IMG/VR virus record: IMGVR_UViG_2740892445_000002 | Length of the DNA: 48,538 nucleotides | Reading direction: 5' to 3' (one strand) | DNA from: a virus | Lineage: Duplodnaviria > Heunggongvirae > Uroviricota > Caudoviricetes | Shown here: positions 1 to 48,538 of the stretch, in pieces | Numbering within the stretch: the stretch's first letter is position 1 | How the letters are laid out: each line of letters opens with the position of its first letter | Notes under the pieces: generated by a model | Seen by the model: the letters and a program-made list of their open reading frames with translations, nothing else | Databases searched by the model: none | What the model was told of the DNA's origin: nothing | Position numbers and translations under genes: made by a program

Positions 1-675
1 TTATTCCTGTGCCCAGCCAACCTTATATGCCAGTATCTCATCCGCACTGGTCAGCTTTTCCAGCTCTTTCTTCATCATGCGCTGGCGAACGTGGATTTCC
101 ATCCCTTTCTGAAACATCGCCTTTTCTGCCGCAGCACTGAGCGCGATCAAAGCCTCCGCTGTCATCGGCACGTCATTATTTTCTGCATCTGTCCAGAAAA
201 ATCCCTCCGGCAGTATTCCCGCTTTTGCTGCTGCCACCGACGGCTCAAGACGAACCTGAGTCACCTTGCCGTAGTCCCACTTCCGTCCATTGTACTCAAA
301 CACATACTCCGCATTTTCCATGGCACTTCGCCAGGCATTTATTTCTGCCCCCTTCTGTTCACGTGCTCTGTCAGCCGTCAGCAGGTCGGTGATTTTTTCC
401 CCGTCAAATCCCCAGCGTCCGCTCAGGTCAATTTTCAGGCTTTCCGGTGCGTCCGGCACTTCAGCCACACTCTGGTTCACCGGCCACAACAACTTAATGT
501 CCTTACCATATCCCGTAATCACACCACGGCTGTCATACACCACCTTCAGCGTGTCTTCCGCAAACCTGGAATGGCATTCATACCAGTCCTGACCATCCTC
601 AGATTTCAGGTATATCGCACCCGCCACATCCGGCTCTGCCGGTGTGTAATACGAAAAATTTCTGACATGCATCAT
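1..675 (-). CDS. tfa: tail fibre assembly protein (Tfa-like chaperone)
   Basis: 224 aa ORF starting MMHVRNFSYYTPAEP..., N-terminal region resembles the TfaE/Tfa family; sits immediately downstream of the side tail fibre gene. Confidence 0.75.
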   Translation of the reverse strand: MMHVRNFSYYTPAEPDVAGAIYLKSEDGQDWYECHSRFAEDTLKVVYDSRGVITGYGKDIKLLWPVNQSVAEVPDAPESLKIDLSGRWGFDGEKITDLLTADRAREQKGAEINAWRSAMENAEYVFEYNGRKWDYGKVTQVRLEPSVAAAKAGILPEGFFWTDAENNDVPMTAEALIALSAAAEKAMFQKGMEIHVRQRMMKKELEKLTSADEILAYKVGWAQE

Positions 676-896
676 TTTCCCGTGCCCTCTTCCGATACCG
701 GCACCCAGACCGGCATTTTTTCCGTACCGACTCCCCGCTTCATGCCCGCCGGTGCAGCATCCGCTGCAAAAACTTTATACACGGCATAGTCCACCTCTAT
801 ACCATCCACAGGCCAGTTTCCGGTAGTCTCGTAAACGGCACGCAGGGAGGCCGGATAAAACATATTCGCGGACGGTGAAAAAATATAACGCTCCAT
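672..896 (-). CDS. small hypothetical protein between tail fibre and tfa
   Basis: 74 aa ORF, start overlaps stop of next gene (ATGA coupling); no recognisable family. Confidence 0.4.
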   Translation of the reverse strand: MERYIFSPSANMFYPASLRAVYETTGNWPVDGIEVDYAVYKVFAADAAPAGMKRGVGTEKMPVWVPVSEEGTGK

Positions 897-905
897 AATC
901 CCTCC

Positions 906-2312
906 TCAGTATCCGGTCGCTTCCCAGAAAAACTTACCGGAGGTTCCTCTGACAGTCCTCAGTGTCACCGACTGCAATGACGGTGAGGACAGAGTGTATC
1001 CAGGAATTTTCCCGGGCTCCCCCACCGGAGAAACCTGAACATTCAGCACTGCTGAAGGAAAAACCACCGGAAAACGGATGGAGTGCAGTGATAACGCCTG
1101 ACCATCGGATTCACTTATCACAAGCGTACCCCATTGTCGCATCCGTCCGGTAGCCTCATCACGTTCCCAGCCATTGACAGCCAGACTCGCCGTCGTGGGT
1201 TTATTCCTGGTACCGTAATCCACCCGCCAGTGGTATTTCCGGGTATCGCCATAAACCGTACAGGTACAGACCGTGCCATTAATAAACCCCGTTGCACCGT
1301 ATTCACCAATGGTGACCCGTACAATGGCGGCGTCATATGTTCCCATCACTTCAATGGTACAGCCGCCCAGATTGAGTTTCCCCGGTCCGACATCAGTGAT
1401 GGCCTTATTCATCGCCGCTGGCAGTGATGCCTTCATTATCCAGCAGGTATGGTCAAATGCCCCCTGCTCTTTCAGCCAGGCAACAAACTCTTCTGTCGTC
1501 CACTCACCTGCTCCGGTTGAAATGTCACGCCCGTATGCTCTGGGCACACCAAGCTCACGGATGAAAGCTTCCCTGTCTGTAATATCTTCAAGGCTGCCTG
1601 ATTTTCCCTGAGGCCCGGCAGGCCCCTGTGGTCCCGGATCTCCCTTTGGCCCTGGAGGGCCACCCGGATCTCCTTTCTCTCCCTTTTCACCCCGTTCGCC
1701 TCTGGGCCCTGTGTCCCCCCTGTCACCTTTTGGTCCCACAGGACCGGCTTTACCCTCAGGTCCTGTGGCTCCGGTATCCCCTTTGGGGCCCGGAACACCC
1801 TGTGCCCCTGTTGCACCACGCTCACCCTGTGGCCCGGTTGCACCTGTCTCACCTTTCGGTCCCTGTACCCCCTGCGGTCCCGGGTCACCTTTATCACCCT
1901 TCGGCCCCCTGGCATTCTCTGCCCGTTTTTTGGCCTCCTCTGCACTGGCTGCGGAGGCTTCAGCACGCTTCAGTATTTCCGCAGCCACCGCTTCCAGCTC
2001 AGCGAGGGCTTTCGGATAATATGGCGCATCCTCAAAGTCCATCAGGAATTTATTCAGTGTTCCCGGTGCAGAGTCCGCCTTCACCAGAATGTCACCGACG
2101 TATGACGGCATACGCCCTTCTGTGTTCAGGGTCACACGGTACAGCCCCGGTTCAACATCCATACTGTAGCTGCCTGTCTCCCCCGGCTGCCCGTATGCCA
2201 CCGTGGTGACAATCACCGTTTCTGTGGTGCGTCGCGCTTTCAGTTCTATTGTGCATCCCGGTACCGGCTTCCCCGCGCCGTCCTTCAGCACACCCGATAT
2301 TCTGACTGCCAT
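906..2312 (-). CDS. stf: side tail fibre protein with collagen-like Gly-X-Y repeats
   Basis: N-terminus [17 protein letters not shown]... matches lambda Stf N-terminus; central run of about 35 G-X-Y triplets ([13 protein letters not shown]...). Confidence 0.85.
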
Positions 2313-2325
2313 AGATTTTCCCCAT

Positions 2326-2359
2326 AAAAAAACCGCAGTGCCGGTTTCCCGGTCTGCGG
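2326..2359 (-). terminator. intrinsic terminator-like hairpin plus U-run just upstream of stf start
   Basis: Minus-strand read CCGCAGACCGGGAAACCGGCACUGCGG followed by UUUUUUU, about 10 nt before the stf ATG. Confidence 0.55.
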
Positions 2360-2688
2360 TAAAAATCGTGGTTTACAGGATTAAAAAGGTGCTATCCGGA
2401 ACCGGAATTCACACAGTGAACTGTGGGTGATCCAGATAATGAGCACTACCGTGATACAAATCACGGTGGTTTTTAACGGTTTTTGCGACACAGAACTTGC
2501 TCCTTATTACGGAGAGGCGCTAACCTGCCACTTGCTTAAGGTAGACGGTTCAGGGCCTCGGGTTAACATTGAAGTTGACTCGGGGCCTTTTCACATCAGG
2601 CCTTCAGGTGTTCCCTCCGGCCATCAGCCAAAGGCACCCGCGCATACTGTACGGTTTTATATCCTTCCGGCAATTCCGGTCATCATGT

Positions 2689-5600
2689 TCACGAAATACT
2701 GATACCCGCCGTGGATTTTTTCATGACCACAACCAGTAAATCACTGATGTATGTTGTCGGCGTCCAGTGGTTCACCCCGTTCGACCACACATTAAACGTC
2801 AGGGTCACATGACCCCGTCCTGCCGGCATATCAATGACGGACGAAAACACCCGGGTGACATCCGTTGCCGGCTCATGAAAAATTACCCTTCCGTTCATCT
2901 GCACCTGTAACTGACACGTGGAATACCATGTTGAAGTGTGATCTTTGCTGGACTGGTGCTCATGTCTCGCCCCCCGGAACAGTACCGGTGGAATGATGAT
3001 CTGCCTGTCGAAGCCCTGGTCATCATAAACGGTGACCGTTATAGTGCCACTGGCATAACTGTTATTCCGTGGGAAAGCTTTCCCCACTGTTTTGACCAGG
3101 TCACCTTCAATCTGGTTTGCAGACAGTTTTCCCAGAATCCGGCAGTTCTGGTTAATGGTCACATTATTGAGCGTGCCAGAGTTCGCATTAATATTTCCGC
3201 TGATATCCGCATTACGGGCCGTCAGCCTGCCTTCCGGCGTCAGGGAGAACACAGGGGGATTGCCGGACGAGGTGATGCTCACCGCAAACAACCGCTTCAG
3301 GAATACGTCGTTCATGAACAACTGATTCCCCTGCGCCACAAACAGCGGCGTGGTGTTGCCGTTCTCCGGGTTAATCATCGCGATACGGTCAGCCTGCAGC
3401 AGAATATTGCTCAGGGTCTGGCCATCAACATCCTCAATCCCCGCACCAATACCAGCAACATACGGAATACCGTTTTTCGTTTTCTGCACCTTCAGCATGT
3501 ACAGTGCGCTCAGGCTGTCATCCGTCTCCTTCTGCACACGCTGTATCTGCTGTATGGTGACACTCTGGTCTTCCAGGATTTTATTGACCGTCTGTGTGAT
3601 TTCATTGCGGGTTTCTGTGATGGTGGTCTTCATCTCCGCCATCTCATCATCAAGCTGACTGTTATCAATCAGCTCCCACATCCCCTGTGCCAGATGTGTC
3701 TTCCCGATTTCTCCTTTGAAAAAGTCCAGATAACCTTCCGCATCATTGCTCGCCCGTCCGGTTGCTTCAACAAAAACGGATTTACCCACCAGGTTGACGC
3801 TGCGCACATAAAACCAGAAATCTGTCCCTGGCTTAATGTGCGAGCCGGAGACGCTCCACTGGCTGCCGGTCCCCAGATAACGGGCGGACGTTTCCACCTG
3901 TGCCGTGTTCGTGATGCGTTTTTCTGAGAACCAGAATTCAAACTGTACCGTCGGATCATACAACGCAAGACGCGGCACTGCTGTTATCTGGAAATAGCCG
4001 GGGGTCAGTTCAATGGTGGCAGGTGCTGCCGGTGCGTTAATCCGGAACGTGGTGGTGGCAGGCTCCCCCAGCTGGCCATAGCTGTTTATCGCCCTGACCG
4101 TCAGGGTGTATTCCCCCAGCGGCAGGCCACTGAAACGGTGCTCCGTGTCGGCGGTGATGGCGCTGGTCACCAGACGGCTGTTTTCACCGGTTCCGCTGGT
4201 CAGGCGCAGACTGAAGCGCACGCCCTTCACCACCCTCGGCGTGTCCCATTTCGCCGCCGCCAGATACTGACCGTCAGACGCGCTTACCTCCACCGTGAGA
4301 TGCTGTACTGCCGGAGGTGTGACACTGTTCAGCGAACCGGACAACGGCTCAAAGGTGGCACCATTATCCACGATGGCCTCCTTCTCCGGCACATGCTGCA
4401 CCGCCGTGATGGCGAAGGTACCGTCCGCATTTTCGCGGATCGCCACACACCGAAACAGACGGCGGCGCAGTCCCGGCAATGCCAGCCCCCAGATACTGTG
4501 TTCCACCACCCCGTCAGGCAGTGTACTGATCTGTATCCTGTCAGGTGATGGCTGCCCGGTAACATCCACACTCACCGGTTTACCGCTGCCGTTTATCAGA
4601 TTCACCGTGGATGTGCCCTTTTCCGGGAGGGTGACTTCACGGTCAAGCGTCAGGGTCCGGCTGGCGTTGTCGACGGACAGGATCCGCCCGCCGATCACGG
4701 TACCGGCATACGCATTATCACTGATTTCAATGATATCGCCCGGCGTGTGACGCAGTCCCTCCGCCCCCACACTGAAATCCACTGTCTGTGTTTCCAGCAG
4801 TTCGGTCTTTATCACCCACAGGCCTGCCCGGTGAGCCTGACCACGGCTGGTACAGCCGAACGCATCCATCTTCAGAAGATTGCGTCCGTAGCGCAGTATG
4901 GCATCCGGATCCTCCACCAGTTCAGTCGATGTCTGCCAGCCATTCTGCGGATCGGTGTAATTCACCTCAACTGCCGTGTGTCTGTCCTTGAGGGCACTGA
5001 AGCTGTAATGAAAACTTACCCCATCCTCCCCCGTCACCACATTACCGGCGGTATAAGTCCAGACAACATCCGATGGTCTGTCCTGAACAAACGTCAGCGT
5101 CTGTCCGTTCCATACCGGCATACAGCGCATTGCAGAGCAGAAATCCCCCAGCACGTCCCACGCCTTACGCTGTTGTGACAGGTACGCATTAAAGGTCATA
5201 CGGGGTTCTGTACCACCAAAGCCATCCGGAACCGGCTGGTCACAGTACTGTCCGAGGGCATAGAGCGCCCACTTGTCCACATCCGCGGCCCCGAGGCGCT
5301 TTCCCATACCATAACGTGGATGCGTCAGCATATCCCACAGACACCAGGCCGGGTTGTTGCTGTATGCCGGTTTCAGAGTCCCGTCCCAGATACCGCTGTA
5401 TGTACGTTTTTCCGGGTCATAGTTTGACGGCACCTGGATGATGCGCCCGCGGATATGGTAGTTCACCGCCATCTGCTGCCCACCGAACTGCTCCGCATCC
5501 ACCTGCAGCCCCACTATGGCTGTGTTCGGGTAGCTCTGTTTCACATCGATGATTTCGGTGTATGACGACCAGAGCGTTCTGTTCTGCAGCTGGTCCGTGG

Positions 5601-7045: not shown

Positions 7046-7695
7046 TTTTCAGAATACCTCTCCCGTTTACTCAGTTGTTCAGGTATATGGTGAAGCAGTT
7101 CACCATTGCCACAGTAAATGGCAGCATGATTGGGTACCGATGAACCAAAACAGCACAGCAGAATGTCTCCCGCCTGTGCACCGGACAGGGATACCCGGTA
7201 AAAGCCGTTTTCCGCCAGATTGTCCAGGTACAGGTTCTGACCGTTGCGCCACCAGTCATCCTCACGCGCAAAATCCGGCAGCGTTATCCCCGCCAGATGG
7301 TATGCATCCCGGAACAGGGTGTAACAGTCCGTCACACCGTGTTCAAAACGCCGTCCGGTGAGGTGCGGAACGCAGCGGAAATGATGAATTTCGCCCCGGC
7401 AGACCAGCCACCAGGGAATTGCACTTTTTACCTGCAGCCGTCGGTCCGCCTCGCTCAGCCAGGGCAGACCGCCGGGATGACTGTGGACCAGCGCCACAAT
7501 CTCCCCCTGCATATCCGCCCGCAACCAGTCTTCCGGCGCAATACGAAAATACGCCTCCGGCTCTGCAGAAATATTCACGCACGGCTGATACTGCTCCCCC
7601 TCCGGCGTTCTCACCACGAAGCCGCACGACTCCGCTGGCGCACACCGCCGTGCATGCGCCAGAATGGCTGATTCAGTCTGTTCCATGATAATCAC
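6943..7695 (-). CDS. K: tail assembly protein K (MPN/JAB plus NlpC/P60-like)
   Basis: N-terminus ...QTESAILAHARRCAPAESCGF..., HSHPGG motif; overlaps I start by about 100 nt. Confidence 0.85.
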   Translation of the reverse strand: MIIMEQTESAILAHARRCAPAESCGFVVRTPEGEQYQPCVNISAEPEAYFRIAPEDWLRADMQGEIVALVHSHPGGLPWLSEADRRLQVKSAIPWWLVCRGEIHHFRCVPHLTGRRFEHGVTDCYTLFRDAYHLAGITLPDFAREDDWWRNGQNLYLDNLAENGFYRVSLSGAQAGDILLCCFGSSVPNHAAIYCGNGELLHHIPEQLSKRERYSEKWQRRTHSVWRHRHWSVSAFTGIYNDLVAASACM

Positions 7696-8595: not shown

Positions 8596-9759
8596 TCAGA
8601 ACTGATAAGTCATCCCAACAGCAACGATATTATCTGTCGCAATACCGGCTTTCTGGGTAAATTCGCTTTCATCAATCAGGTTAATTTTATAATCAACATA
8701 AGTGGACATATTTTTGTTAAAGTAATAAGTCGCACCGACATCAATATATTTAACCAGATCCTGGTCGCCATGGTTCACACCACCAACCATAACATCCTGT
8801 CCGCGGGACTGCAGATAAGCCAGAGATGGACGCAGGCCAAAATCGAACTGATACTGAGCAACCATTTCAAGGTTTTGTGCTTTATCCGCAACCCCGGTAT
8901 CACCAAAAGTGGTCATATTCTGGGTTTCGGAATAAATTGCAGCCAGATACAGATTGTTTGCATCATATTTAAGGCCAGTCCCCCACATCTCAGCATACTT
9001 ACCTTTTGCAACGCTGCCGGAATCAACGGACACTTCTTTTTCCGTCACATCCCCCGTTAAAGGATCTTTGACTTCAATAGTTTTGCTACCATTCAGGCCA
9101 TTAACCTGCTTACCTGTACGATCTGACTTAGTATACGCTGCCACAAAACCAAAACCATCAAACTCATAGCTGGCAGAGAAACCATATCCATCACCATTAG
9201 ACTTCTGGAGGTCATCTCGCTCATTTTTTCCCTGATACTGGGCTGCAAAGTTAAGACCATCCACCAGTCCGAAGAAATCTGTATTGCGGTAAGTCAGCAC
9301 TCCGGAAGTACGAGCAGTCATGAAGTTATCAGTCTGCGTCCAGCCATCGCCACCAAATTCTGGCAGAACGTCTGTATACGAACCGACATCATAAGCGATA
9401 CCATAATTACGCCCGTAATCAATGCTACCTAAATCAGCGAATTTCAAACCGGCAAATGCCAGACGGGTTTTATTGCCTGCCGTCCCTTCAGACTCGGCCT
9501 TATTACCTGAAAACTGATATTCCCAGTGACCAAAACCTGTCAGTTGATCATTGATCTGAGTCTCACCTTTAAAACCAAGACGTGCATAGGTCTTATCGCC
9601 ATCATCACCTTTATCGTCTGAGAAGTAATGGAGAGCAGTTACACGACCATAAAGATCCAGCTTATTACCATCTTTATTATAAACTTCTGCTGCCTGAGCC
9701 CCCGCAGCAAACATCACTGCCACTGCAACAGCAGAAAGTGCCACTGTCATTTTTTTCAT
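8596..9759 (-). CDS. OmpC/OmpF/PhoE-family general porin (phage moron)
   Basis: 387 aa; signal peptide then [17 protein letters not shown]..., C-terminal YVDYKINL...VGMTYQF porin signature; inserted between tail genes M and L with AT-rich upstream region. Confidence 0.9.
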
Positions 9760-29846: not shown

Positions 29847-29851
29847 GTCCA

Positions 29852-29876
29852 TAAAAAAGCCCCTCCGGAGAGGGGC
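29852..29876 (-). terminator. intrinsic terminator after repeat unit 1
   Basis: Minus-strand GCCCCUC-UCCG-GAGGGGC followed by UUUUUUAU. Confidence 0.6.
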
Positions 29877-29898
29877 ATACTAGCTATATATCCATTTA

Positions 29899-30026
29899 TC
29901 ATTGGCTGCGTGGTGCCGGGTGCCTCCCGGTGAGCTCAGTCTGGTGTCACTGAGCCCGCACATTCTCGATCCAAGTTATCGTCGGAGATAATACCTGATA
30001 CACCAGACGCCCCTCCGCACAGGGGG
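29899..30026 (-). repeat. tRNA-like cloverleaf repeat unit 1 (candidate structured ncRNA)
   Basis: Conserved blocks GGTGCCGGGTGCCTCCCGGTG and CCCCTCCGCACAGGGGGATTCACCA; terminal stem CGTGGTG/CACCACG; variable interior. Confidence 0.5.
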
Positions 30027-30263
30027 ATTCACCACGCGCAGAGAAGGATACTGAACACTATTTTCTCCAGGCAATATGCAATAACATGAAGTGTGAGATG
30101 ACTTACAATTATAAAAAACAGCCTACAGAATACTCCTAAATAAAGCCATATCAAAATGAGTAACACAAAAAGGAACCAGGCAAAAATTTACGAGCAGGTA
30201 TTATCCAGCAACAGTTCAGACGCCATAACTTATTGCCGATAGCTACCATCAATAATTTCTTTC

Positions 30264-30289
30264 ATAAAAAAGCCCCTCTGAAGAGGGGC
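30264..30289 (-). terminator. intrinsic terminator after repeat unit 2
   Basis: Minus-strand GCCCCUC-UUCA-GAGGGGC followed by UUUUUUAU. Confidence 0.6.
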
Positions 30290-30316
30290 TGACATACGCA
30301 TTTGCTTTCATCATCA

Positions 30317-30439
30317 ATATGGCGCCGGGTGCCTCCCGGTGCTCCATAACTGATTAATATGGAACGCGGTTTCATTCAGTTGCATTCATGAATAACACTC
30401 TAATCAGTCCGCCCCGCCGCTTAGGGGGATTCGCCATAT
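30317..30439 (-). repeat. tRNA-like cloverleaf repeat unit 2 (candidate structured ncRNA)
   Basis: Same blocks with compensatory changes (GGCGCC... / ...GATTCGCCA); terminal stem ATATGGCG/CGCCATAT; interior closed by ACTGATTA/TAATCAGT. Confidence 0.5.
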
Positions 30440-30574
30440 AAATTGAAAGTACTGAACACATCTGTCACAAACAATATGCAATTGTATGAATTGTGAGATT
30501 ATTATCAATAACACAAAATTACAGCTCTAGTACATAAACAGCAGATTAAACAAGAACAACAAAAGTATTGAATT

Positions 30575-30697
30575 GCACGGTGCCGGGTGCCTCCCGGTGA
30601 ATTCTGCAATGACCAGACAGAATCCGCAACTTGCTACTAACGCTAATGCGACCAAGCCTCAGTCATTATGCCCCTCCGCACAGGGGGATTCACCATG
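30575..30697 (-). repeat. tRNA-like cloverleaf repeat unit 3 (candidate structured ncRNA)
   Basis: Same conserved blocks; terminal stem GCACGGTG/CACCATGC (one mismatch); interior closed by AATGAC/GTCATT. Confidence 0.5.
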
Positions 30698-30827
30698 CGC
30701 TAAAAAAATACAAAACGTCACGTCACTCTGACAATACGAAGCACCATAAAATGTGAGTTATTTATCAATTCTTAATTCTGGTTACAGGAATATTCCGAAT
30801 CAAATCTTTAAAAAAAGAAATTCAAAT

Positions 30828-30930
30828 GCATGGTGCCGGGTGCCTCCCGGTGAACAGACCGTCCGTGATACCAGTAGGCAACACAGGAAATTAATGGTAT
30901 CACCCCACCGCACAGGGGGATTCACCATGC
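30828..30930 (-). repeat. tRNA-like cloverleaf repeat unit 4 (candidate structured ncRNA)
   Basis: Same conserved blocks; terminal stem GCATGGTG/CACCATGC; interior closed by GTGATACCA/TGGTATCAC. Confidence 0.5.
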
Positions 30931-31320
30931 AGGCGTTTTCTTAGCAAACTAACTGCGCGCCCGGCAACTCCCAACCACATAAAACGTGGAGTTTGTAGCA
31001 TTTATGCACATAACTCACAGGGGTTATCTTAAAAAAAGCTGACCATGCTTCCCCGGCAACGCAATAACTTTATTCCCTGAAGTGGCATCCCCCGTATTGT
31101 CGGCAGGCTCAAAAAGGAGCCAGTCATCTGAGGATGACTGGAAAAAGGAAAGATAAAAAATTATTCATCATACAACCTTCGTTGCAGGGGAGAATCCTGC
31201 GGTGCAGCAACATACAAAAACATAAGCCAACTAACAATATGCAGGCATAGCATTTTCGGATTTTGTTATATGGCACGGTAACTGAATGCTTACCTGATAT
31301 ACAGTCCGGTATAAAGTTGC

Positions 31321-31342
31321 AAAAAACCGCCAGTTAAGGCGG
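31321..31342 (-). terminator. intrinsic terminator downstream of tRNA genes
   Basis: Minus-strand CCGCC-UUAACU-GGCGG followed by UUUUUU. Confidence 0.55.
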
Positions 31343-31582
31343 CATTCAAACAGACAACAGGATTTTTTCGTAATTTTAACAACTTCGGGGTGGCGCATCG
31401 TCAGCCCCTGTCAGGAAGTACCAGAACTCCCACCAACAATATCCCCCCATTCAGCGTTATCAAACACAGCACAGAAACTATCAATGTTTGCTGTTACAGT
31501 TAGGGAAAAAACGATAAATACGCCACAGGCTCTTTTTGCTGTGAAGTAAAAACTGATCTGAAAGACTGCTCATCATTTATTT

Positions 31583-31660
31583 TGCTGGACCGTCACCGGG
31601 GACTCGAACCCCGCATTTTCAACATAAAAAGGTTGATGCTCTTTCCTGATGAGCTAGTGA
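31583..31660 (-). tRNA. tRNA-like gene with 8-nt anticodon loop CUUUUUAU (Lys-UUU-like; possible variant or pseudogene)
   Basis: Acceptor stem CCGTCAC/GTGACGG, D arm GCTC-ATCAGGAAA-GAGC, T arm CGGGG-TTCGAGT-CCCCG, encoded CCA; anticodon loop one nt too long. Confidence 0.55.
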
Positions 31661-31662
31661 CG

Positions 31663-31737
31663 GCATGGTTGCCTTGCTGGATTTGAACCAGCGACCTGGC
31701 GATTATGAGTCTCTCGCTCTCACCACTGAGCTAAAGG
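31663..31737 (-). tRNA. tRNA-like gene with CAU anticodon (Met/Ile2-like), imperfect acceptor and anticodon stems; possible pseudogene
   Basis: D arm GCTC-AGTGGTGA-GAGC, anticodon loop CTCATAA, T arm GCTGG-TTCAAAT-CCAGC, CCA; only 4 of 7 acceptor pairs form by my reading. Confidence 0.45.
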
Positions 31738-31780
31738 GCCGGGAACAGAATAATAATGGTGCGTAATTAATTCTGCAATC

Positions 31781-32839
31781 TCATCCCTTCTGGCTGACTA
31801 AATCCTGAACTTCCCTGACCGTCTGCTCAAAACGCTCAGTCTCCAGCTCAACGCCAATCGCACGACGCCCCAGTGCCAGCGCCGCTTTGACTGTCGAACC
31901 CGACCCCATGAAGAAATCCGCAACCAGGTCACCCGGACGACTACTCGCTCTGATTATCTGCTGCAGCATTTCTGCCGGTTTTTCGCACGGATGTTTCCCG
32001 GGATAGAACTGCACCGGTTTATGCGTCCACACATCGGTATATGGCACCTGCGCCGTCACGCCAAAATACCGCCGCAGATGCTTATATTCACACTGCAGTT
32101 CCGCATACTGCCGGTTCAGTGAGGTATACGCGGCAACCAGCTGGTGGTGTGGCTTTTCCAGTTCACCGCACTGATGTTTCTCTTCTGCCACCCTGGCAAA
32201 CAGCGCCTGCAATTTCAGATAATCGCGTTCATTCGGTAACTGCCACTGACTGGTACTGAACCAGTGCGACACCATATTTTTCTTGCCCGTGGCCTCTGCA
32301 ATCTGTTTTGCCGTTATCCCCAGGGCTGCACGCGCATCACGAAAGTAAGAAATCAGCGGGGCCATCACATGCTGTTTCAGTTCCCTGCCCTTCGCACCAT
32401 AGCCATCATCTTTCGGAAGGTACGGCCCCTGATAATGTTCCGCAAACAGAATGCGCTCTGTGGCCGGGAAATACGCACGCAGGCTTTCCTTGTTGCACCC
32501 GTTCCAGCGTCCGGATGGCTTCGCCCAGATGATATGGTTCAGCACATTAAAGCGTTCACGCATCATGATTTCGATGTCGGATGCCAGGCGATGCCCACAG
32601 AACAGGTAAATGCTTCCCTCGGGCTTTAATACCCGCCAGAAGTGCGCCAGACACTGGTCCAGCCACTTCAGGTAATCATCATCGCCATTCCACTGGTTAT
32701 CCCAGCCATTGGGTTTTACTTTAAAGTACGGCGGGTCCGTGACTATCAGATCGACAGAGTTTTCAGGTAAGGTCTGGATAAATTCCAGGCAGTCAGCGTT
32801 GATTAACTCACAACTGGATATTTTTACAGTGTTAAGCAT
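31781..32839 (-). CDS. DNA N6-adenine methyltransferase (orphan, beta-class)
   Basis: 352 aa with DPPY motif (IVTDPPYFKV) followed later by FxGxG-like FFMGSGST; no adjacent restriction gene. Confidence 0.85.
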   Translation of the reverse strand: MLNTVKISSCELINADCLEFIQTLPENSVDLIVTDPPYFKVKPNGWDNQWNGDDDYLKWLDQCLAHFWRVLKPEGSIYLFCGHRLASDIEIMMRERFNVLNHIIWAKPSGRWNGCNKESLRAYFPATERILFAEHYQGPYLPKDDGYGAKGRELKQHVMAPLISYFRDARAALGITAKQIAEATGKKNMVSHWFSTSQWQLPNERDYLKLQALFARVAEEKHQCGELEKPHHQLVAAYTSLNRQYAELQCEYKHLRRYFGVTAQVPYTDVWTHKPVQFYPGKHPCEKPAEMLQQIIRASSRPGDLVADFFMGSGSTVKAALALGRRAIGVELETERFEQTVREVQDLVSQKG

Positions 32840-33412: not shown

Positions 33413-34234
33413 CTATCGCGTTACCCTCTTCAACTGCCACTCTGCCCATGCCTCTGCAATATCAAACCGGACCACCAGCGTGTCATAGAATTGCTTAACT
33501 GTTTTTTCCCATGAAGCGCGTGTTATCTGATTTGTCACCTCACATATGGCATCAAATGCCTCCGTTGAAGGTAATCTTTCATAGCCACGCCCACCACAAC
33601 GCTGACAGTTTCTGAAAACCGGCATACCTCGTTTTTCAGACTCTTCACGATGAATGGCAACACCGCGCCCACGGCAATCTTTACAGGCAGTGGAGACCTC
33701 CCCCTTTCCACCACACTCCGGACAGGCAACTTTTACCACCTCCCTGACTTTTTTCCATTCCTCCCAGTAAGACGGATACACGCCTTTTGTACACTTTGCC
33801 CATACTGGCGGCTTACCATCCGGATACTGAATCTTGTTTGTAAAAATCTCGCTTTCAATAAATTTTTTTCCGTGACAGCATGGGCACTGTTTTTTGCTCG
33901 CCGCGCTCCGGGCATAATCCTCAAACGCATACGAAGCCATAATGCGCATCACTACCGGTTTTATTTCTGCCGGAAGTTTTCTTAACGCTGCCACGCGATC
34001 ACACCGACTGAGAGCGTATTCTGCCAGCAGTTCTGTTGCCCGCTCCCTGTCATTCATACTGATGCCCATTTTCCCAAGGAACGCAGAAAACCCCATCTCA
34101 GCCCGATTCTGTGTCATGCCCTGCGCTGCCATCACATCAGTGATACTCAGCGCATCTTTTGACGTTGAGGCCGATGCATCCGTCAGACCCGGTGATTTTG
34201 GGGAATAGTATTTTGGTAAATCTTCCAGTTTCAT
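33413..34234 (-). CDS. Q: late-gene antitermination protein Q (zinc-finger Q family of lambdoid prophages)
   Basis: 273 aa, four CxxC motifs (CPCCHGKK, CPECGGKG, CKDCRGRG, CQRCGGRG); located directly upstream of pR'/tR'. Confidence 0.8.
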   Translation of the reverse strand: MKLEDLPKYYSPKSPGLTDASASTSKDALSITDVMAAQGMTQNRAEMGFSAFLGKMGISMNDRERATELLAEYALSRCDRVAALRKLPAEIKPVVMRIMASYAFEDYARSAASKKQCPCCHGKKFIESEIFTNKIQYPDGKPPVWAKCTKGVYPSYWEEWKKVREVVKVACPECGGKGEVSTACKDCRGRGVAIHREESEKRGMPVFRNCQRCGGRGYERLPSTEAFDAICEVTNQITRASWEKTVKQFYDTLVVRFDIAEAWAEWQLKRVTR

Positions 34235-36107: not shown

Positions 36108-36263
36108 TTACTTCTCAGATTCGTAAGCTGTGAAGACAGCGACCTCCGTCTGGCCGGTTCGGATTCGTACCTCGCAGAGGTCTTTCCTCGTTACCAGTAC
36201 CGTTACAACGACGGTAATACAGATGACGATCAGGGCGATTAGCATCGCCTTTTGCTGCTTCAT
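36108..36263 (-). CDS. hokD: Hok-family type I toxin (HokD/RelF-like)
   Basis: 51 aa MKQQKAMLIALIVICITVVVTVLVTRKDLCEVRIRTGQTEVAVFTAYESEK, near-identical to my recollection of HokD. Confidence 0.9.
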   Translation of the reverse strand: MKQQKAMLIALIVICITVVVTVLVTRKDLCEVRIRTGQTEVAVFTAYESEK

Positions 36264-36440
36264 AGCCTGCTGCTCCTTGCCTTTCGGCGCGTAAGAGGCT
36301 AATCTAAGTGTGCAAGTCATAGATATGGCCTCAGATTAATGTTAAGCGTCCTGCAAGACGCATAATGTTAACTGGGGCTTTTCTCTGTCTGCCTTACGTC
36401 GGCATGCCCGAGGCAGACAGCCTCAAGCACCCGCAGCAAT
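36264..36440. promoter_or_regulatory. hok mRNA leader / mok start / antisense Sok region
   Basis: Minus-strand leader GGGUGCUUGAGGCUGUCUGCCUC... resembles hok mRNA 5' end; in-frame upstream start MTCTLRL... Confidence 0.45.
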
Positions 36441-47172: not shown

Positions 47173-47451
47173 GTGATGGCCATGAGCGAACAGTACCTGA
47201 TAACGCTCGACGAGTGGAAACCTAAACGGTTCAGTCTCCCAATAACAAACACTACCCTGGTGAAATACGGAAAAATGGGATACATCGTTCCAAGGCCACA
47301 AAAAATCCGTGGGCGTTGGCTGATAGATCGCCGAGCAGTATTTGTGGGTCCTGGTGAAACAGGAATTGCGCCGGAAATTCATACTGACGATGATGACGCA
47401 CTGAAGGAGATTTTAACTCATGTCACCGAGGCCACGAAAAAACAGCACTGA
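47173..47451 (+). CDS. xis: excisionase-like protein
   Basis: 92 aa basic protein immediately upstream of and overlapping integrase. Confidence 0.55.
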   Translation: MMAMSEQYLITLDEWKPKRFSLPITNTTLVKYGKMGYIVPRPQKIRGRWLIDRRAVFVGPGETGIAPEIHTDDDDALKEILTHVTEATKKQH

Positions 47452-48538
47452 CATAGCATGTCTTTACGAAAAGTTTGATCGCAGAACTGGCAAGGTTTAC
47501 TACCAGTATAAAAATCCAGTGACTGGAAAATTTCACGGACTCGGAACAGACAAAGGCAAGGCAGAAAAAATCGCTTCCACGGCTAATCAACGAATAGCTG
47601 CAGCAGAAGCGGAATATTTCATGCGCAAAATTGATGAAAGTCCATCAGCAACAAAACGTCGGGGTATCAGATTAAAAGCATGGGTTGATCGATATCTGAA
47701 AATACAGGACTCACGACTGAAAAATGGAGATATTGCAGCTACAACCCACAAAGAAAAGGCGCGAATGGCTGCATACCTGGTTTCCCGCCTGGGAAATCAC
47801 CCATTGATAGACCTGGAAGTAAGAGACTTTGCATTAATACTGGATGAATGGCTGGATAAAGACATGGTCAGCACAGCGAGAGTAAATCGCGGATTATGGG
47901 TTGATATTTATAAAGAAGCACAACATGCAGGGGAAGTTCCTCCTGGATGGAATCCTCCGGAGGCTACCCGTAAACCGATCCCTAAAGTAACCAGAGCCAG
48001 GCTCGCCCTAGAAGACTGGCAAAAAATTTACAACGCAACGCCGGAAAAACACTTTATCCGTAACGCAATGCTTCTTGCGATTGTCACTGGTCAGCGCCGT
48101 GATGACATTTGCCACATGCGTTTTTCAGATGTGTGGAACGAACACTTGCATATCACCCAGGGAAAAACCGGAATGCGTCTGGCGTTACCGCTTACACTAC
48201 GCTGTGATGCCATTGGGATAACGTTAAAAGACGTTATTGATGGATGCCGAGACAGAATATTAAGTCCATATCTAATCCATAGTCGGCACCAGAAACAACC
48301 AAAGCCGATGAGTAAAGACAACCTGAGCGACTACTTTGCCAAAGCGCGGGATCTGGCTGGAATAATTCCACCAGCAGGAAAAACACCGCCCACATTTCAT
48401 GAACAACGCTCTCTATCTGAACGGCTGTACCGTGCACAGGGTATCGATACAAAAACCTTACTAGGACATAAAGTCCAGGCAACCACCGATCGCTATAACG
48501 ATACCCGAGGTCAGGAATGGGTTAAGTTGGTTATTTGA
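47420..48538 (+). CDS. int: tyrosine site-specific integrase
   Basis: 372 aa; C-terminal ...HEQRSLSERLY...LLGHK....TDRY... with catalytic-type R, H-x-x-R and Y positions. Confidence 0.9.
   Translation: MSPRPRKNSTDIACLYEKFDRRTGKVYYQYKNPVTGKFHGLGTDKGKAEKIASTANQRIAAAEAEYFMRKIDESPSATKRRGIRLKAWVDRYLKIQDSRLKNGDIAATTHKEKARMAAYLVSRLGNHPLIDLEVRDFALILDEWLDKDMVSTARVNRGLWVDIYKEAQHAGEVPPGWNPPEATRKPIPKVTRARLALEDWQKIYNATPEKHFIRNAMLLAIVTGQRRDDICHMRFSDVWNEHLHITQGKTGMRLALPLTLRCDAIGITLKDVIDGCRDRILSPYLIHSRHQKQPKPMSKDNLSDYFAKARDLAGIIPPAGKTPPTFHEQRSLSERLYRAQGIDTKTLLGHKVQATTDRYNDTRGQEWVKLVI

Follow-up and report, generated by a model that had tools for sequence, protein, structure and literature searches.

Two tandem transfer RNA (tRNA) genes, an ileZ-like gene and a lysine-type (Lys-like) gene with an anticodon loop of 8 nucleotides (nt), are encoded on the minus strand of the Caudoviricetes record IMGVR_UViG_2740892445_000002 (48,538 nt, analysed at full length and referred to here as the window). 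Comparison with intact relatives indicates that both belong to the known tRNA cluster of lambdoid and Shiga toxin (Stx) phages and that their odd features are derived lesions of one rare prophage lineage, not a new kind of tRNA. The pair is probably a product of mutational decay, in which the ileZ-like gene is effectively a pseudogene and the Lys-like gene a slippage mutant that would at most decode poorly and now and then shift the frame by +1. The homology and synteny of the genes, their exact lesions, the rarity of the alleles and the constant co-occurrence of the ileZ lesions with an extra T in the Lys-like gene were established directly. The pair is probably no longer under selection as working tRNAs.

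ARAGORN found exactly two tRNA genes in the window, placed head-to-tail, one at 31667-31741(-) with the anticodon CAT and the other at 31586-31663(-) with a four-base anticodon, 'tttt', and no assigned amino acid. Under the Rfam model RF00005, whose gathering score is 29, the CAU gene reached 47.6 bits and the second gene 47.3 bits (E of about 4e-7 over the whole window), and both show the consensus of the D arm (GG in its loop) and of the T arm (GTTCRA in its loop). Both tRNA genes are real, far beyond chance. A first-pass annotation of this DNA had described two tandem tRNA genes with recognisable D and T arms and an encoded CCA, which the scans and the sequence bear out. Its hand folds also held, with corrections to the strand, which is minus, and to a few bases of the coordinates; the gene limits used here (Table 1) were set by the minus-strand reading and by alignment to intact relatives. 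The 8-nt anticodon loop proposed for the downstream gene was reproduced by the minimum free energy (MFE) fold, by a base inserted in the Rfam alignment and by the four-base anticodon of ARAGORN. For the upstream gene, the CAU anticodon was recovered together with four of the seven acceptor pairs: only pairs 4-7 can form, and the Rfam alignment is local, covering model positions 4-67 only and leaving out the top three acceptor pairs. The two mismatches described in its anticodon stem are both present, as A27.C43 and A29.G41, and only the latter is a new lesion.

In megablast searches, the tRNA region matched more than 280 phage records, almost all of them Stx-converting phages, at 82-84% identity over 215 nt, and the matched segments are annotated as ileZ/tRNA-Ile and argN/tRNA-Arg. 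In the RefSeq Escherichia coli genomes that are 99-100% identical here, the Prokaryotic Genome Annotation Pipeline (PGAP) calls tRNA-Ile and tRNA-Lys. The position of the genes is also shared, since in Stx phages (Stx2a_WGPS8, AP012540) the cluster lies in the same slot, downstream of Q and a methylase gene and upstream of the toxin, small RNA (sRNA), esterase and lysis region. Relative to the ileZ-argN-argO cluster of these phages, the first gene of the window is the same ileZ but for three lesions, while the second is built on the argN scaffold. However, unlike the three-gene Stx-phage cluster (CAU/UCG/UCU), the window has neither argO nor stx and carries only two tRNA genes. Its second gene has a U-run, Lys-type anticodon in an 8-nt loop where the Stx-phage argN has UCG, and the acceptor and anticodon stems of its ileZ are damaged, in contrast to those of the Stx-phage ileZ. 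The first-pass suggestion that the genes are decaying copies of the tRNA genes of the stx locus is supported by the match of about 83% to ileZ-argN over 215 nt, by the common Q-methylase-tRNA-lysis layout and by the derived nature of the lesions.

ileZ encodes a tRNA-Ile that is read through a lysidine-modified CAU anticodon. The gene is as a rule extremely conserved, and its consensus, GGCCCTTTAGCTCAGTGGTGAGAGCGAGCGACTCATAATCGCCAGGTCGCTGGTTCAAATCCAGCAAGGGCCACCA (76 nt), is identical in 100 of the 120 loci of an IMG/VR sample composed of loci that carry the second-tRNA family. The window copy departs from this consensus by three lesions: at 31712, C29 is replaced by A, so that the C29-G41 pair is lost; the GGG run of the 3′ acceptor strand is one G shorter (31672-31673); and C72 is replaced by A at 31670. 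The A27.C43 mismatch is found in every intact ileZ and is therefore not a lesion. As a result of these changes, the acceptor can form pairs 4-7 only, or five pairs with a bulged C3. In Rfam, intact ileZ genes score 72.5/71.8 bits, so that about 25 bits are lost in the window copy, and the MFE fold of the ileZ-like RNA has no acceptor helix and no cloverleaf (z-score of -0.5, compared with -3.2 for intact ileZ). The anticodon loop, CUCAUAA, is of the usual 7 nt, with U33 and a purine at position 37. Both C29-G41 and the acceptor stem, identity elements for the isoleucyl-tRNA synthetase (IleRS), are hit in the window copy, and C4-G69 and C5-G68, presumably the identity elements for TilS, are both spared. 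The ileZ-like RNA can no longer close a normal acceptor stem; most probably, the gene is either a pseudogene or severely impaired.

The ileZ of the 95-3322 sister lineage is intact, with a compensated change of A31-U39 to G31-C39, which argues for selection on structure in that lineage. Alleles with a single lesion were also observed in unrelated prophages: ileZ has the G deletion only in N51 (L137 151-225) and C29A only in 7_14_47A (L138 151-226), and PGAP calls tRNA-Ile in both. Such sporadic single-lesion alleles follow the pattern expected from mutational noise in a multi-copy gene.

A perfect cloverleaf is the MFE structure of the Lys-like RNA (-29.0 kcal/mol, z-score of -3.5), its acceptor comprising 7 bp and its anticodon loop, CUUUUUAU, 8 nt. 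All seven acceptor pairs are formed, followed by U73-CCA, and the Rfam alignment is full-length, with the one inserted base lying in the anticodon loop, which is hence one nucleotide longer than the standard 7 nt. An alternative fold with a 7-nt loop was rejected, since no pair is possible between C32 and U38 and the loop of the MFE structure has 8 nt. The nearest relatives of the gene, 96% identical to it, come from 14 RefSeq records (95-3322, ECOR29 and 8178 among them). They have the 7-nt loop CUUUUAU and are tRNA-Lys(UUU) genes according to ARAGORN as well as PGAP. The window differs from them in this loop by a single inserted T, giving TTTTT instead of TTTT, and scores 47.3 bits in Rfam compared with 53.2 bits for the relatives. 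Besides the gene identity, the sister allele of 95-3322, ECOR29 and 8178 shares with the window the 2-nt spacer after ileZ, identical in the 95-3322 locus, and the neighbourhood of a methylase gene and STnc100 sRNA genes. It differs by its 7-nt loop, by its intact ileZ with the compensated stem change and by being called a plain tRNA-Lys by ARAGORN and PGAP.

Across the IMG/VR loci, the argN scaffold, defined by the same acceptor, D and T arms, carries several anticodon loops: CTTCGAA (Arg UCG) at 35 loci, CTTCTAA (Arg UCU) at 10, CCTTTAA (Lys UUU with C33) at 69, and CTTTTAT and CTTTTTAT at one locus each. These loops indicate that anticodon switching between Arg UCG/UCU and Lys UUU has taken place within one phage tRNA family. 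The direct ancestor of the downstream gene is the tRNA-Lys(UUU) branch of this scaffold, with the 7-nt loop of the 95-3322 type, and not argN or argO themselves. The commonest allele of the second tRNA is a Lys(UUU) form with the loop CCUUUAA, C33 and an A51.C63 mismatch in the T stem, present at 69 of the 120 loci and identical at 60. Further loops of the family are rare and include A33 (CAUCUAA) and U32 variants. In addition, an 82-nt element of E. coli M8 (L128 201-282), present in 18 E. coli genomes, has the acceptor stem and T arm of the Lys-like gene around a different middle; ARAGORN calls it tRNA-Val(AAC), PGAP leaves it without annotation, and it too may belong to the family, as a copy that has been rearranged or has decayed.

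The proposed course of events is that the pair would descend, with mutations, from the late-region tRNA cluster of lambdoid/Stx-type phages. In this lineage, ileZ would have taken three helix hits, namely the loss of a G from the GGG run, C72 to A and C29 to A, and a one-base slippage from TTTT to TTTTT would have enlarged the Lys anticodon loop from 7 to 8 nt. Changes in homopolymer length are the commonest kind of replication error, and both indels, the extra T and the lost G, are of this kind. Judged against intact orthologues, the derived damage, a mark of tRNA pseudogenes, amounts to three helix lesions in ileZ and one loop insertion in the Lys-like gene. Should the Q-dependent late promoter still drive transcription of the pair, the Lys-like RNA would decode poorly at best and could cause an occasional +1 slip at AAA-A.

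The alleles are rare and travel together. ileZ is present at 7,518 places in 3,056 of the 5,426 complete E. coli genomes, and the window ileZ allele is found in six of these genomes (four exact copies and two with one further substitution). The 8-nt Lys allele is likewise carried by six of the 5,426, those of M18, M1, M3, CI5, PG20180057 and A39. A dedicated scan of 2.9 million IMG/VR contigs for an 8-nt loop on the argN scaffold returned one contig, which is also the sole match among 241 million metagenome records. Among the GTDB species representatives, no member with an 8-nt loop was found, the second-tRNA family being limited there to three Escherichia/Shigella records, all with 7-nt loops, and no 6-nt-loop variant of the family was found in IMG/VR. 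The extra T and all three ileZ lesions occur together in all six carrier genomes and in the metagenome contig.

Private changes have accumulated in some carriers: the ileZ of CI5 has a D-loop U to A, that of PG20180057 has A23 to G, and the Lys gene of A39, which PGAP no longer annotates, has U in place of C64 and one C too many at its CCA end. Segregating sites among the carriers make up 3.2% of the tRNA pair (5/155) and 2.9% of the adjacent non-coding DNA (47/1,624), in a comparison that includes six carriers only. The flanks were compared on anchored 3.5-kb segments, as mosaic neighbour genes made a 6-kb flank alignment unusable. The methylase gene upstream of the tRNAs is itself mosaic among the carriers, with a divergence of up to 13%. 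This provides weak evidence that the damaged tRNA module has outlasted recombination under a constraint no greater than that of its surroundings.

Several observations weigh against mutational decay. The cloverleaf of the Lys-like gene is flawless except for the loop size, and the 8-nt gene has persisted across 2-13% flank divergence in hosts from mice, humans and an Australian rodent. Within the narrow CUUUUAU-type sub-branch, the 8-nt allele represents six of about 20 records. PGAP calls both genes in five genomes without a pseudogene flag. U33 is near-universal in tRNAs, and the allele with C33 and A51.C63, although non-canonical, is widespread, implying that odd features alone do not prove decay in this family. 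Furthermore, the open reading frames (ORFs) of the window use rare codons heavily (7.7 AUA, 5.8 AGA and 5.3 AGG per 1,000), at levels that presumably exceed the host average, so the loss of ileZ should carry some cost; the prophage nevertheless has no working ileZ and no Arg tRNA. Lastly, the six carriers form too small a sample for a real selection test.

Alternative explanations were considered for each gene. It is next to inconceivable that errors of sequencing or assembly in homopolymers account for the extra T and the missing G: both indels do lie inside homopolymer runs, but the same alleles recur, with differing linked substitutions, in one metagenome contig and in six complete genomes that are independent of one another and differ in laboratory and host, and because these independent assemblies agree, sequencing error is rejected. 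It is also quite unlikely that the ileZ-like gene is still functional. With C3 bulged and G2-C71 paired, the G1.A72 end mismatch would give a usable initiator-like acceptor end, and in our own reading the sequence permits five Watson-Crick pairs and a bulge with A73-CCA kept. C4-G69, C5-G68 and the entire anticodon loop are moreover intact, and the gene is still a tRNA-Ile for PGAP. However, this reading is at odds with the deficit of about 25 bits relative to intact ileZ, with the lack of an acceptor helix in the centroid as well as the MFE fold (z-score of -0.5), with the additional break of C29-G41, an IleRS identity pair, and with the invariance of the consensus allele in 100 of the 120 loci. 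The 8-nt-loop gene is unlikely to be maintained in nature as a working prophage tRNA-Lys whose anticodon is UUUU, acting either as a Q-induced +1 frameshifter at AAA-A or as a loop-altered tRNA or decoy that escapes or soaks up PrrC or AriB in lytic growth. A working +1 frameshift suppressor, a type of functional variant that the first-pass annotation had also offered, charged with Lys and shifting +1 at AAA-A through its UUUU anticodon in an 8-nt loop, either in a programmed shift or for the rescue of indels, is the less probable of these forms and appears improbable. An intact tRNA body with an extra base in the anticodon loop is the classic suppressor architecture, and a 2002 paper by O'Connor is said, from its title, to report that insertions in tRNA-Lys promote quadruplet decoding. 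In agreement with such a role, single-base insertions give functional, though weak, quadruplet decoders for 7 of the 20 E. coli isoacceptor classes, but those for Lys yielded too little product to be characterised (PMC9094753). The sufD tRNA-Gly CCCC, the sufB2/sufA6 tRNA-Pro and the sufG tRNA-Gln likewise have one extra anticodon-loop nucleotide that repeats an anticodon base in an otherwise normal body (PMC9094753). However, these were selected in the laboratory against a known frameshifted target, whereas the window tRNA is known from its sequence, has a broken neighbour gene and has no target found. Indeed, no pair of real genes in the window is bridged by an in-frame +1 shift at AAA-A: the scan of the window ORFs for such pairs gave three mechanical matches and no split gene. 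The three were rejected: one is the xis/int overlap, and the other two are stretches of the terminase region that lie in antisense or in another frame. No gene of the M18 prophage is marked as frameshifted by PGAP. With 129 in-frame AAA-A sites in the prophage ORFs as off-targets, efficient quadruplet reading would damage the proteins of the phage itself. The 8-nt allele also always accompanies a broken ileZ. The Atkins review (PMC5009743) mentions 'tRNAs in a phage' with non-standard loops.

The Lys-like gene could instead still work, with triplet reading kept, as an anti-defence tRNA or decoy against the anticodon nucleases AriB, of the PARIS system, and PrrC, the larger loop providing further evasion; this too is unlikely. 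Phage tRNA-Lys variants rescue infection from PARIS, in the case of T5, and from PrrC170 (PMC11464382, PMC12409363, PMC11555353), and anticodon-loop changes in phage tRNAs were proposed to serve nuclease evasion (PMC10264068). AriB cleaves the host tRNA-Lys(UUU) at U36AAUC/A41, and this cleavage is abolished by U39 to A and strongly reduced by A41 to C (PMC12409363). Where the host tRNA-Lys has U39 C40 A41, both the window gene and its 7-nt sister have G39 U40 U41, which predicts resistance. In addition, the SLK172 prophage (L004 3050-3359) carries an Ile-Lys(UUU)-Thr(UGU)-Gly(UCC) cluster in which the Lys gene is the C33 CCUUUAA allele, the two main targets of AriB being Lys(UUU) and Thr(UGU) (PMC12409363). 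An enlarged loop need not prevent triplet reading, as illustrated by the yeast mitochondrial tRNA-Thr1, which also has a natural 8-nt anticodon loop (PMC3113583). That tRNA is, however, conserved and essential and reads CUN triplets, whereas the window tRNA belongs to a rare prophage lineage and has no sign of conservation. The T5 tRNA-Lys(UUU) that counters PARIS and the phage tRNA-Lys that counters PrrC170 are also phage-borne, of the Lys(UUU) type, with a stem unlike that of the host at the AriB determinants U39/A41. The window gene differs from the T5 tRNA-Lys by its origin in a temperate lambdoid prophage, by its unrelated argN-derived scaffold with U73, by its 8-nt loop and by being documented from sequence alone. 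Compared with the host nuclease target UUU, the anticodon of the sister allele is UUU, and the window gene has five U in an 8-nt loop, with an undefined register. Because the 7-nt sister already has the changes that predict resistance, the extra U gives no obvious benefit. The 8-nt form is also very infrequent, comes with a damaged ileZ and drifts at the same pace as its flanks. G39 U40 U41 and the SLK172 Lys/Thr cluster nevertheless suggest that the ancestral Lys gene was plausibly an anti-nuclease tRNA, and the C33 Lys gene and Thr(UGU) of SLK172 may together serve temperate phages as an anti-defence set of tRNAs.

The window is a lambdoid prophage whose end falls exactly on the integrase stop codon (int 47420-48538; xis 47173-47451), and the equivalent prophage in E. 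coli M18 adjoins potC. On the minus strand, the order is Q, a terminator-like hairpin, a small ORF, the methylase gene, the two tRNA genes, a second terminator-like hairpin, four STnc100-family genes, an esterase-like gene, holin and lysozyme (Table 1). Holin and lysozyme were placed downstream from the annotation of M18, which is identical to the window over the 301-nt tRNA region. Q is presumed to be the source of read-through transcription into the tRNAs.

Table 1. Coordinates of the tRNA genes and neighbouring features in the window
Feature	Position	Strand	Description	Evidence
ileZ-like tRNA gene	31666..31740	-	75 nt; anticodon CAU at 31705-31707; CCA encoded; PGAP label tRNA-Ile	ARAGORN, Rfam, alignments
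Spacer UG	31664..31665	-	2 nt, from the CCA of the ileZ-like gene to base 1 of the Lys-like gene	Sequence
Lys-like tRNA gene	31586..31663	-	78 nt; 7-bp acceptor; U73; CCA encoded; normal D/T arms; PGAP label tRNA-Lys	ARAGORN, Rfam, fold
8-nt anticodon loop CUUUUUAU	31624..31631	-	Five-T run at 31626-31630, one longer than in the sister allele CUUUUAU	
N6/N4 DNA methylase gene	31781..32839	-	Directly upstream of the tRNAs	ORF, Pfam PF01555 (E = 2.6e-45), PGAP
Q-type late antiterminator gene	33413..34234	-		ORF, Pfam PF03589 (E = 1e-51)
Terminator-like hairpin 3′ of Q	33330-33315	-		
Terminator-like hairpin and T-run	31326..31343	-	3′ of the tRNA pair by about 240 nt	
Four tandem STnc100-family sRNA genes	29847..30960	-	The repeat array of the first-pass annotation	Rfam RF02076 (77-133 bits)

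The STnc100 array occupies the slot of stx in Stx phages, and Stx2a_WGPS8 has a single copy of 158 bits just 3′ of stx2B (L001 4717-4928). One of the four STnc100 repeats is missing in A39. According to a 2026 preprint (10.64898/2026.05.13.724894), STnc100 is related to the PasD sRNAs. Elsewhere in the window, a sok antitoxin RNA (RF01794, 114.8 bits) is present at 36258-36432(-), and hokD is annotated at the equivalent position of M18. An ORF of 387 amino acids at 8596-9759(-) is situated in the tail region, with the tape-measure gene on one side and the minor tail gene L on the other. PGAP annotates the porin OmpC at the equivalent position of M18, and the ORF is probably a lysogenic-conversion moron.

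A literature search on phage tRNAs with 8-nt loops and on ileZ/argN/argO found no paper on this family, and as far as the searches went, the 8-nt Lys allele with its damaged ileZ is previously undescribed. The pair illustrates the decay of prophage tRNA genes through homopolymer slippage; in annotation pipelines, such genes pass as tRNA-Ile and tRNA-Lys with no flag on their defects. To our knowledge, natural quadruplet-type tRNAs are very rare in bacteria. If the 8-nt tRNA were charged and active, its phage-borne expression, restricted to lytic growth, would constitute a new recoding or anti-defence device, and a functional 8-nt tRNA-Lys would join a wider, undescribed Lys/Thr family of lambdoid prophages with non-canonical loops, including the common C33 allele. 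These functional readings and the common, non-canonical C33 Lys allele are worth following. The anticodon switching between Arg and Lys, together with the frequent company of tRNA-Thr(UGU), may be the more useful lead, as it offers a testable tie between the tRNAs of temperate phages and tRNA-cleaving defences.

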